In this document: piece by piece, positions 30,701 through 33,700 of the stretch
How positions within the stretch are numbered: the first letter of the stretch is position 1
How the letters are laid out: every line of letters begins with the position of its first letter
From: Escherichia coli
GTDB taxonomy: Bacteria > Pseudomonadota > Gammaproteobacteria > Enterobacterales > Enterobacteriaceae
DNA length: 64,000 nucleotides
NCBI RefSeq assembly: GCF_051903065.1
Contig: NZ_CP178439.1
Reading direction: 5' to 3' (one strand)
Position numbers: made by a program

Positions 30701-33700
30701 TTTCGCACACTAACGAAGGTATGGCCTTTCGTCGGTGTTAAATTTTTCAAACTTTGCTTACTTTGTCAAGGAAGGTGACCGCAGTAGCAGGCACAACTAC
30801 TTTAATCTGTATGAATAATAAGGTAGAACCGGCCAGTGAATGAATGCTTACCCTGAAATCAGGCGGACAACCTTCAGGAATATTGATAGCAAGACTGAAT
30901 CTCTCGCTGCGGCGATAAACATTTCGCCATAACCCTGAACGAGAGTGGTTCATCCATCATATACAGGAGCGTTACATGCGCAAATTTAAGTACATAATCT
31001 GTCACCAGTGCGAAGGCCACGGGACCATGGAAAACCCGGCCTTTGAAAATGGATTCACCCAATCAGAAATGGCTGAGTGGGAGCCAGAAATGCGTGAAAA
31101 GTATTTTGCCGGAGCATTTGATGTTCGCTGTAACGTTTGTGCCGGTGACGGTAAGCTCAGCGTACCAAACGTAGCGGCTATGTCTTTTTCAGAACGACGG
31201 GTTCTGGCAGCACGGCGGCGTGATGAGCGTCTTCAGGCTGCTGATGAACGGCTGTCCCGCCAGGAACGAGCAATGGGGTACTGAGGTGCTACAGCAAAGA
31301 TGAAAATGACGAAGCCAAAACCGGTAAGCCGGATGAAAAGACCGTTTATTAGTGAGCTTGCAGAGCTGGGTTTATCGGGTGAAATTCTTTCAATTCGAAC
31401 TGACGGCATGCAGGGGACGCTCATACCCGATCTTACCGCAGGGGTGAGTGAAGCAGGCCGTGTGAAAACCGGCAACTGGGTAATCTCTGACAAGAGAACC
31501 TTCGACCATGTCGTTCTGTGTGTTGAAAGACAAGATGAGAACCATGATGTGTACGTAGGTAAATTCATCCAGTTACATGTAGCCGCTAATAAGAGCCTTA
31601 AGATCGTCGAAATGGGCGATGTGAAACTGGTGGCCATAACCAGCTCGATTCCTACCACTTTTAATGGTGGGATAAAGAGATACAAAGGGGTTACGTATGT
31701 GTCACTTTCCCAAACAGCTCAAACCACTATCGACTTCCCGAAGCGTATCTACAAAGAGGGCCAGGAATGTACTTCTGTCACCAGTCCTGACCAAGGTCCT
31801 TTCGCCCGGGATGTTAGGTTGAATTGCTACGGGCGATGTGTTGTCACCGGCGTAAGGTCCCCCTGGCGTACTGAGGCCGCGCACTTAACGCCACGTCATG
31901 AAGAAGGCATTCCCGACGTAACGAACGGAATTTTACTTCGCCGTGATATCCATACACTGTTCGACAATGACCATTGCGCCATAAACCCTGACACTATGAA
32001 AATTTACTTCAGCCGGGAGGCCCGGGAGTTGGATGATGATCTCCTGAAATGGCATGGGAATGAGATAGAGACGACACGCATGCAGGTTCCGGTTAACATC
32101 GAAAACCTTCGGATACGATGGCAAAAATTTAAGGCTAAGGATCGTCAGCGTAAATAAAGCCATAAGCTGAACCACGGCGAGGATTAGTCTTGTTCACTAA
32201 ATGACAGCGAGAGATTAAATGCAAACCCAAAAAGAAATTACAGTTGGCCAGATCTGGGAAGAAGTGGATCCAAGACTGATCCGGAAAGTGCGGGTTGTTG
32301 AGGTGGCCTCGTTAGAAGGGCCCAAAGGCATCCTTATCGAAAACGTGGAGTCTGGTCGTAAGAACTGGGCGTCGTCATCCCGCTTTAATGGAAAGCGTGG
32401 AGGGTATCGTCTTATTTCCTGACGGTTTTGCCAATATGGGAAACTGAAGAGGTTGAAACCATCCCGGTGAGGGAGCATATCTGGTAAAGAAGAGTCTTTA
32501 AAAAGGTTTTACGCGACCTGGGATAATAAACGGGAAAACGATACCCAAAAAAAGAATACAGCGATGATAACGATAAGGAATGGTAAGGGCTTCAATATTT
32601 TGAGAAATGCCCTGGCTTCCTTTGCATCTGCATTTCTAATCAAACTGTCCACATAGGGATCACAGCTCTTAGGTTCTGAATTTTTCATATGTTCTGTACC
32701 TGAAATTGATTCCGTATGAGAAAAGGCCACCGAAGTGGCCTCTATCAAAACTGGTGGCAAAAGTTAGATCAGGAAATCATCAAGACTTTTACCGGCTGCA
32801 ATTTGTTCTGCCAGAGCTTTGGGGGTACGGCCCTGTCCAGTCCACGTTTTTGTTTCGCCATTTTCATCAGTAAATGAGTATTTGGCCGGGCGTGGTCCAC
32901 GGCTTTTCTTGGTAGCCGTAGATTTGGCCTGGAATGAGCCAAGCAGCTCTTCCGGGTTGATACCATCTTCTTCCATTAACTTACGCAGGGCGTCAAGTTT
33001 CTCCTGACGAGCTTGCAGTTCGGCAGCTTTGGATGATTCTTCCTGACGGCACTGTTGCAAATAGTCGGTGGTGATAAACTTATCATCCCCTTTTGCTGAT
33101 GGAGCTGCACATGAACCCATTCAAAGGCCGGCATTTTCAGCGTGACATCATTCTGTGGGCCGTACGCTGGTACTGCAAATACGGCATCAGTTACCGTGAG
33201 CTGCAGGAGATGCTGGCTGAACGCGGAGTGAATGTCGATCACTCCACGATTTACCGCTGGGTTCAGCGTTATGCGCCTGAAATGGAAAAACGGCTGCGCT
33301 GGTACTGGCGTAACCCTTCCGATCTTTGCCCGTGGCACATGGATGAAACCTACGTGAAGGTCAATGGCCGCTGGGCGTATCTGTACCGGGCCGTCGACAG
33401 CCGGGGCCGCACTGTCGATTTTTATCTCTCCTCCCGTCGTAACAGCAAAGCTGCATACCGGTTTCTGGGTAAAATCCTCAACAACGTGAAGAAGTGGCAG
33501 ATCCCGCGATTCATCAACACGGATAAAGCGCCCGCCTATGGTCGCGCGCTTGCTCTGCTCAAACGCGAAGGCCGGTGCCCGTCTGACGTTGAACACCGAC
33601 AGATTAAGTACCGGAACAACGTGATTGAATGCGATCATGGCAAACTGAAACGGATAATCGGCGCCACGCTGGGATTTAAATCCATGAAGACGGCTTACGC

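Follow-up and report, generated by a model that had tools for sequence, protein, structure and literature searches.

The window analysed here, a 64,000-nucleotide stretch of Escherichia coli contig NZ_CP178439.1, contains the 3′ part of an H-NS-family gene (hns) from an IncHI2 plasmid backbone, cut off by the insertion sequence IS26. The hns remnant lies on the minus strand at 32764–33047 and consists of two bases of codon 41, codons 42–134, and the stop codon TAA (32764–32766). Compared with the intact IncHI2 hns gene of 405 nt, the remnant is 284 nt long and is 100% identical to positions 6605–6888 of the intact locus L001, up to the last base before IS26. At position 33048 the sequence switches from hns to GGCACTGTTGCAAA, the terminal inverted repeat of IS26. 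A preliminary description of this DNA had reported an hns-like gene decapitated by IS26 at 32764–33047, and these coordinates proved to be exact.

Results

The hns remnant and the adjoining IS26

A tblastn search matched residues 41–134 of the intact H-NS protein to the window at 100% identity. The remaining 121 nt of the coding sequence, that is, codons 1–40, are missing together with the promoter: the sequence from L001 6889 onward, comprising the upstream region and codons 1–40, is absent from the window, and the remnant has neither its own promoter nor its own translation start. No second hns or hha gene was found within the window by tblastn. Just downstream of the stop codon, an intrinsic-terminator-like hairpin of hns is intact (32719–32743, minus strand; GAGGCCAC-UUCG-GUGGCCUU followed by a U-rich tail). 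The hairpin is GC-rich, with a computed folding energy of −18.5 kcal/mol and a z-score of −3.2, and was not reported by a stricter terminator scan.

The element abutting the remnant with its left end is a complete IS26 of 820 bp on the plus strand (33048–33867), bounded by perfect 14-bp inverted repeats (GGCACTGTTGCAAA at 33048 and its counterpart at 33854–33867) and carrying a single DDE transposase gene. This gene, tnp26 (33111–33815, plus strand), is listed among the open reading frames (ORFs) with 234 aa. The Prokaryotic Genome Annotation Pipeline (PGAP) places a 705-nt coding sequence at the equivalent position in the relatives L003 and L004, and relatives with the same sequence annotate the IS26 transposase as WP_001067855.1. 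Three further copies in the window have the same sequence as the one at 33048–33867, and the window contains 11 occurrences of the 14-bp inverted repeat where 0.06 would be expected by chance.

The intact gene in related plasmids

The intact gene of 405 nt encodes a protein of 134 aa (WP_001287392.1; L001 6605–7009) and is present, for example, in pM160133_p1 and pSE08-00436-1, which are typed IncHI2A/MOBH. The flanks of the remnant are 100% identical to plasmids of this type, which locates the gene in the IncH backbone. The 888 bp to the left of IS26 matched approximately 950 PLSDB plasmids (935 at ≥99% identity), nearly all of them large and conjugative and found in Salmonella, E. coli, and Enterobacter. 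When a query centred on the breakpoint was taken from the intact gene, 859 PLSDB records matched, and 730 of the 859 spanned the breakpoint, indicating that the short form is not the natural length. The comparison with intact genes on related plasmids, which the preliminary description had proposed, thus gave a clear answer: IncHI2 relatives lacking IS26 at this site carry the 134-aa gene, with an identical 3′ part.

The parent protein shares 80.6% identity with the H-NS encoded on an IncHI1B plasmid. The hns neighbourhood of the IncHI1B plasmid is syntenic: DUF6884 lies upstream of the gene and an HNH endonuclease downstream. The H-NS proteins of IncH plasmids, among them Sfh (AAN38840.1), form the clade HppH (PMC7544231). 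Judged by its sequence, the parent gene probably belongs to this IncH plasmid H-NS group, referred to as HppH/Sfh in the literature.

Domains lost and retained

The DNA-binding domain of the remnant is complete. The Pfam family PF00816 matches residues 79–118 of the ORF described below over its full profile (1–38; E = 2.9e-16), and the loop motif TWTGQGRTP is present in the translation. In contrast, the N-terminal oligomerisation domain PF22470 matches only at profile positions 38–78 of 79, compared with 1–78 in the intact protein. The intact protein aligns without gaps to Salmonella H-NS 1–81 (PDB 3NR7), so that the numbering is identical, and its C-terminus aligns to the DNA-binding domains of StpA and H-NS. 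Structural matches to residues 1–46 include crystal and nuclear magnetic resonance entries of H-NS 1–46 with and without Hha (4ICG, 2MW2); from these known structures, we take the lost region to be also the Hha-binding part of H-NS.

Dimerisation site 1 of H-NS comprises residues 1–40, and site 2 comprises residues 57–83 (PMC6936261). Since the break lies after codon 40, site 1 has been removed almost exactly. Residues 41–134 still include the second dimerisation site along with the linker and the DNA-binding domain; only site 1 is gone. The earlier statement that the C-terminal DNA-binding domain is retained therefore stands, as the domain is whole, but it understated what is left: 94 of the 134 residues remain, including site 2 and the linker.

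The fusion ORF and its signals

The longest minus-strand ORF at the junction (32764–33120, 118 aa) comprises 24 residues encoded by IS26, an arginine at the junction, and H-NS residues 42–134. Its start codon is an ATG (33120) that belongs to IS26 and lies antisense to the beginning of tnp26. The junction falls within codon 25 (CGT, Arg), which corresponds to R41 of the intact protein, and from residue 26 onward the sequence is H-NS. The apparent N-terminus is IS26-encoded, as previously proposed, and the ORF owes its existence solely to the chance in-frame position of an antisense ATG in IS26. In relatives, RefSeq annotates the fusion as the multispecies protein WP_065311124.1, “H-NS family nucleoid-associated regulatory protein” (UniProt A0A0N9DXJ5). 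This name is misleading, because the protein begins with antisense IS26 sequence and lacks dimerisation site 1.

Promoters were scanned at a threshold of 9 of 12 consensus matches, at which shuffled sequence yields 1.8 sites, and no minus-strand promoter was found between 32400 and 33900. A relaxed scan returned only two matches, both at 8/12, a quality expected by chance. The first (33150–33179, minus strand; TTTGCA, 18-nt spacer, CAGAAT) lies in IS26, antisense to tnp26, and is the sole candidate promoter upstream of the fusion ATG. The second is a candidate weak hybrid promoter (33033–33060, minus strand), in which a −35 box TTGCAA in the IS26 inverted repeat is separated by a 16-nt spacer from a −10 box AATCAT in hns; a transcript from it would begin downstream of the fusion ATG. 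No Shine-Dalgarno sequence precedes any of the three in-frame starts (ATG 33120, TTG 33060, ATG 32976). The suggestion that the fusion ORF might be transcribed from within IS26 thus finds no support in these signals, and the ORF is probably an annotation artefact rather than an expressed gene.

Distribution of the junction

A junction-spanning query found the identical hns::IS26 junction, at 100% identity, in at least 119 PLSDB records. The hosts of the junction-bearing plasmids include Salmonella, E. coli, Escherichia albertii, Enterobacter, Klebsiella, and Shigella, and the exact 118-aa fusion protein was found on 605 contigs in a large protein collection. This subgroup makes up approximately 14% of the PLSDB records that hold the hns gene region. 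Against the breakpoint-centred query, the junction records match in one place each and cover only query positions 1–285, the 3′ half of hns. The junction is already known in the sense that it is present and annotated in more than 100 public plasmids; literature searches found no published description specific to this hns truncation.

The same junction with IncHI2 flanks also occurs in a 4.9-Mb chromosome record (NZ_CP087110.1, 4909419–4910887; E. coli PJ-T13), which suggests either that IncHI2 DNA has integrated into the chromosome or that the two were joined in assembly.

The missing 5′ half

The two 8-bp flanks of the IS26 at 33048–33867, TTCCTGAC and GGATTGAA, are unrelated and do not constitute a target-site duplication. 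A chimeric query representing the reciprocal junction (IS26 right end, 8-bp duplication, and hns 5′ end) was not found in PLSDB: the single two-piece match consisted of pieces approximately 540 bp apart and was no true match.

The relative pS25-IncHI2, which carries the truncation, shows what was lost. Its order is hns remnant, IS26 (plus), aph(3′)-Ia, IS26 (minus), and then backbone resuming at L001 position 9557, which leaves a gap of 2,668 bp in the backbone beside the junction. In intact relatives this segment holds hns codons 1–40 and the promoter region, together with four small ORFs whose functions are unknown, DUF6884 among them. A domain scan of the four lost small genes found no informative domain except DUF6884, and none was Hha-like. 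Neither the window nor the 234 kb searched, out of 237.7 kb, of pS25-IncHI2 contains the 2,668-bp segment.

Other IS26 copies and the resistance region

Five IS26 copies are present in the window between 33048 and 62068. In addition to the copy at the hns junction, they lie at 37421–38202 (plus strand, 3′-truncated to 782 bp), 38575–39394 (minus strand), 43150–43969 (minus strand, two mismatches), and 61249–62068 (plus strand). For none of the five do the two flanking 8-bp sequences match as a duplication. Another match to the 14-bp inverted repeat stands by itself at 46944–46957.

Beyond the IS26 at the junction, in place of the hns 5′ end, lies the macrolide-resistance module mph(A)-mrx(A)-mphR(A) (33937–36661, plus strand), whose ORFs at 33937–34842, 34839–36077, and 36077–36661 are named in matching records. 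It belongs to a resistance module of approximately 24 kb (33048–57000) that contains mph(A), blaCTX-M-55, qnrS1, blaTEM-1, and further resistance genes. This module is inverted relative to the relatives sharing the hns::IS26 junction. Neither PLSDB nor the complete E. coli genomes yielded a record with the arrangement hns remnant/IS26/mph(A) at ≥80% query coverage.

Neighbouring backbone and hha

To the left of hns, the window at 30741–32157 differs from pM160133_p1. A 4.4-kb segment with an ATP-dependent helicase and a hypothetical gene (L001 970–5358) is missing, and 765 extra bp make the HNH endonuclease full length (285 aa at 31300–32157, compared with an annotation of 112 aa in L001). The plasmids pR18.0877_278k and pS25-IncHI2 resemble the window across 30741–32157. 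Directly downstream of hns, an 83-aa ORF (32509–32760, minus strand) with a TTG start and a hydrophobic C-terminus overlaps the terminator hairpin. It has no Pfam match and no annotation in relatives and is therefore probably not a gene.

The IncHI2 backbone also encodes an Hha/YmoA-family protein (WP_001285422.1) that is 50% identical to E. coli Hha, approximately 30 kb from hns. By synteny with L006 14923–15135, hha lies just to the left of window position 1. The Hha homologue is kept in pS25-IncHI2, in which no second H-NS-family gene was found.

Discussion

Our analysis indicates that the feature at 32764–33047 is the inactivated remnant of the IncHI2 backbone H-NS gene, left by an IS26-mediated deletion and marking a plasmid lineage; we assign this reading a probability of roughly 0.78. 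IS26 gives rise to adjacent deletions without target duplications by intramolecular replicative transposition (PMC7986276). A simple insertion or a resolved cointegrate would be expected to leave an 8-bp target-site duplication. The missing duplication is expected after an intramolecular deletion or after recombination between IS26 copies, and is thus no argument against the identity of the element. The unrelated flanks, the absence of a reciprocal junction, and the missing 5′ half together point to deletion rather than simple insertion. From these observations and from the identity of the junction across plasmids, we infer both the deletion mechanism and a single origin. An IS26 at the edge of a multiresistance region would have removed 2,668 bp of backbone, so that its left end came to abut codon 41. 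This would have happened once, in an ancestor, and the junction would then have been inherited by a widespread IncHI2 sublineage. Later IS26-mediated rearrangements may have exchanged the DNA on the far side, leaving aph(3′)-Ia in the relatives and mph(A) here; such further reshuffling is suggested by the differing far-side DNA, the inverted module, and the unmatched arrangement. Site 2, the linker, and the DNA-binding domain are still encoded, but without a promoter or ribosome-binding site of the gene's own.

Several points weigh against this reading. The single origin rests on the identical junction; because IS26 does not select its targets strictly at random, the same junction could conceivably have formed more than once. 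The size of the deletion comes from a relative, as the resistance region runs beyond the window end and no backbone resumes before position 64000. All copies of the remnant are 100% identical, the event being too recent, and there is no signal of decay that would prove a pseudogene; this identity provides no evolutionary signal on expression either way. Furthermore, the weak antisense and hybrid promoter matches might be active, as IS26 ends form hybrid promoters elsewhere.

The last point leads to the foremost alternative, namely that the remnant is weakly expressed and acts as a partial anti-silencer. The product would be either the 118-aa fusion, driven by the weak antisense promoter in IS26, or a 70-aa protein that begins at M65 and is driven by the hybrid promoter. 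We consider such expression unlikely, and equally unlikely its presumed effect, in which the product, bound to DNA, would cap or poison chromosomal H-NS/StpA filaments. The idea has some basis: nothing is missing from site 2, the linker, or the DNA-binding domain, the hns terminator is preserved, IS26 inverted repeats supply −35 boxes to hybrid promoters (PMC7986276), and promoter-like sites occur at 33179–33150 and 33060–33033. A synthetic H-NS 56–82 peptide abolishes DNA bridging in vitro (PMC5647153), so that the retained site 2, if expressed, could interfere with H-NS filaments. However, neither site reaches the scan threshold and such matches are expected by chance, no candidate start has a Shine-Dalgarno sequence, and the hybrid promoter transcript would not include the fusion ATG. 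In addition, the 24 IS26-derived residues are unrelated to H-NS, and literature searches found no paper on such a product. Nothing in the sequence favours expression of the remnant, and we infer that it is not expressed. By RNA-seq, the IncHI2 h-ns gene has been reported among the most highly expressed plasmid genes (PMC13183382), in a plasmid (pMDRHI2/pJXP9) whose allele may be either intact or truncated.

A simple insertion of IS26, with the 5′ half of a split hns surviving elsewhere on the replicon beyond the window, is very improbable. The window does end inside the resistance region, and the far boundary is beyond view. However, the 8-bp flanks are not a duplication, the reciprocal junction occurs in no PLSDB record, the junction records hold the 3′ half only and in a single place, and the 2,668-bp segment is missing from both the window and the searched part of pS25-IncHI2. 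Finally, the notion that the gene is naturally short in this lineage and lies next to IS26 by coincidence, for which only the RefSeq listing of the 118-aa ORF as an ordinary H-NS family protein speaks, is already refuted by the 730 related plasmids whose 134-aa gene is identical downstream of the breakpoint and by the N-terminal Pfam domain, whose match is cut at profile position 38, besides the origin of the first 24 codons in IS26 read antisense.

If the remnant is inactive, as the deletion reading holds, the plasmid most likely makes no functional H-NS of its own. The H-NS proteins of R27 and pSf-R27 are stealth silencers and, together with Hha, repress conjugation at 37 °C (PMC7544231, PMC9598596). 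By homology, the same two roles, stealth silencing and Hha-assisted repression of conjugation at 37 °C, are expected of the intact IncHI2 protein. Hha is kept in the truncated lineage though its plasmid H-NS partner has lost the Hha-binding N-terminus. Since Hha is kept and no second H-NS gene was found, the sublineage most likely relies on the H-NS and StpA of the chromosome, along with the retained Hha. Its spread in Salmonella, E. coli, Enterobacter, and Klebsiella in the lack of a plasmid H-NS suggests that the stealth protein may be dispensable for dissemination. The identical junction provides a convenient lineage marker for this IncHI2 subgroup. In other respects the truncation appears to be an ordinary scar of resistance-region assembly, as IS26 routinely truncates backbone genes at the edges of such regions.

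A more far-reaching possibility is that loss of the stealth H-NS with retention of Hha has altered plasmid biology, while a low level of remnant protein caps host H-NS filaments. We regard this combination as unlikely. If it were true, the loss of stealth function could relax the repression of conjugation at 37 °C or alter the fitness cost in new hosts, and an expressed remnant would represent the mirror image of H-NST, arisen naturally through an insertion sequence.

The intact IncHI2 parent resembles Sfh of pSf-R27 and the H-NS of R27 in being an IncH backbone gene of 134 aa with full H-NS architecture. In contrast, the copy in the window is devoid of the promoter and of residues 1–40, and its product would be unable to form the head-to-head dimers needed for filaments. 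The surroundings resemble the IS26-bounded resistance regions described previously (PMC7986276), with several copies in both orientations, no flanking duplications, and deletion of the adjacent backbone. The mechanism is no different from that of other IS26 adjacent deletions; what differs is the gene struck, which is the plasmid's own nucleoid-associated silencer.

The candidate hybrid promoter may be compared with those formed by IS26 for aphA7, blaSHV-2a, and blaKPC (PMC7986276), in that an outward-facing −35 box TTGCAA is followed 16 nt away by the −10-like AATCAT. Compared with the documented cases, however, the match is weak (8/12), transcription would begin within the remnant, and there is no ribosome-binding site after it. 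Like H-NST, a natural truncated H-NS antagonist (Williamson and Free 2005, cited in PMC6936261), the remnant is a shortened ORF of the H-NS family, lies on mobile DNA, and might in principle disturb H-NS oligomerisation. Whereas H-NST keeps the N-terminal dimerisation domain, is without the DNA-binding domain, and has its own expression signals, the remnant described here, for which no such signals were detected, is the reverse half of the protein and does not share this H-NST-like architecture.

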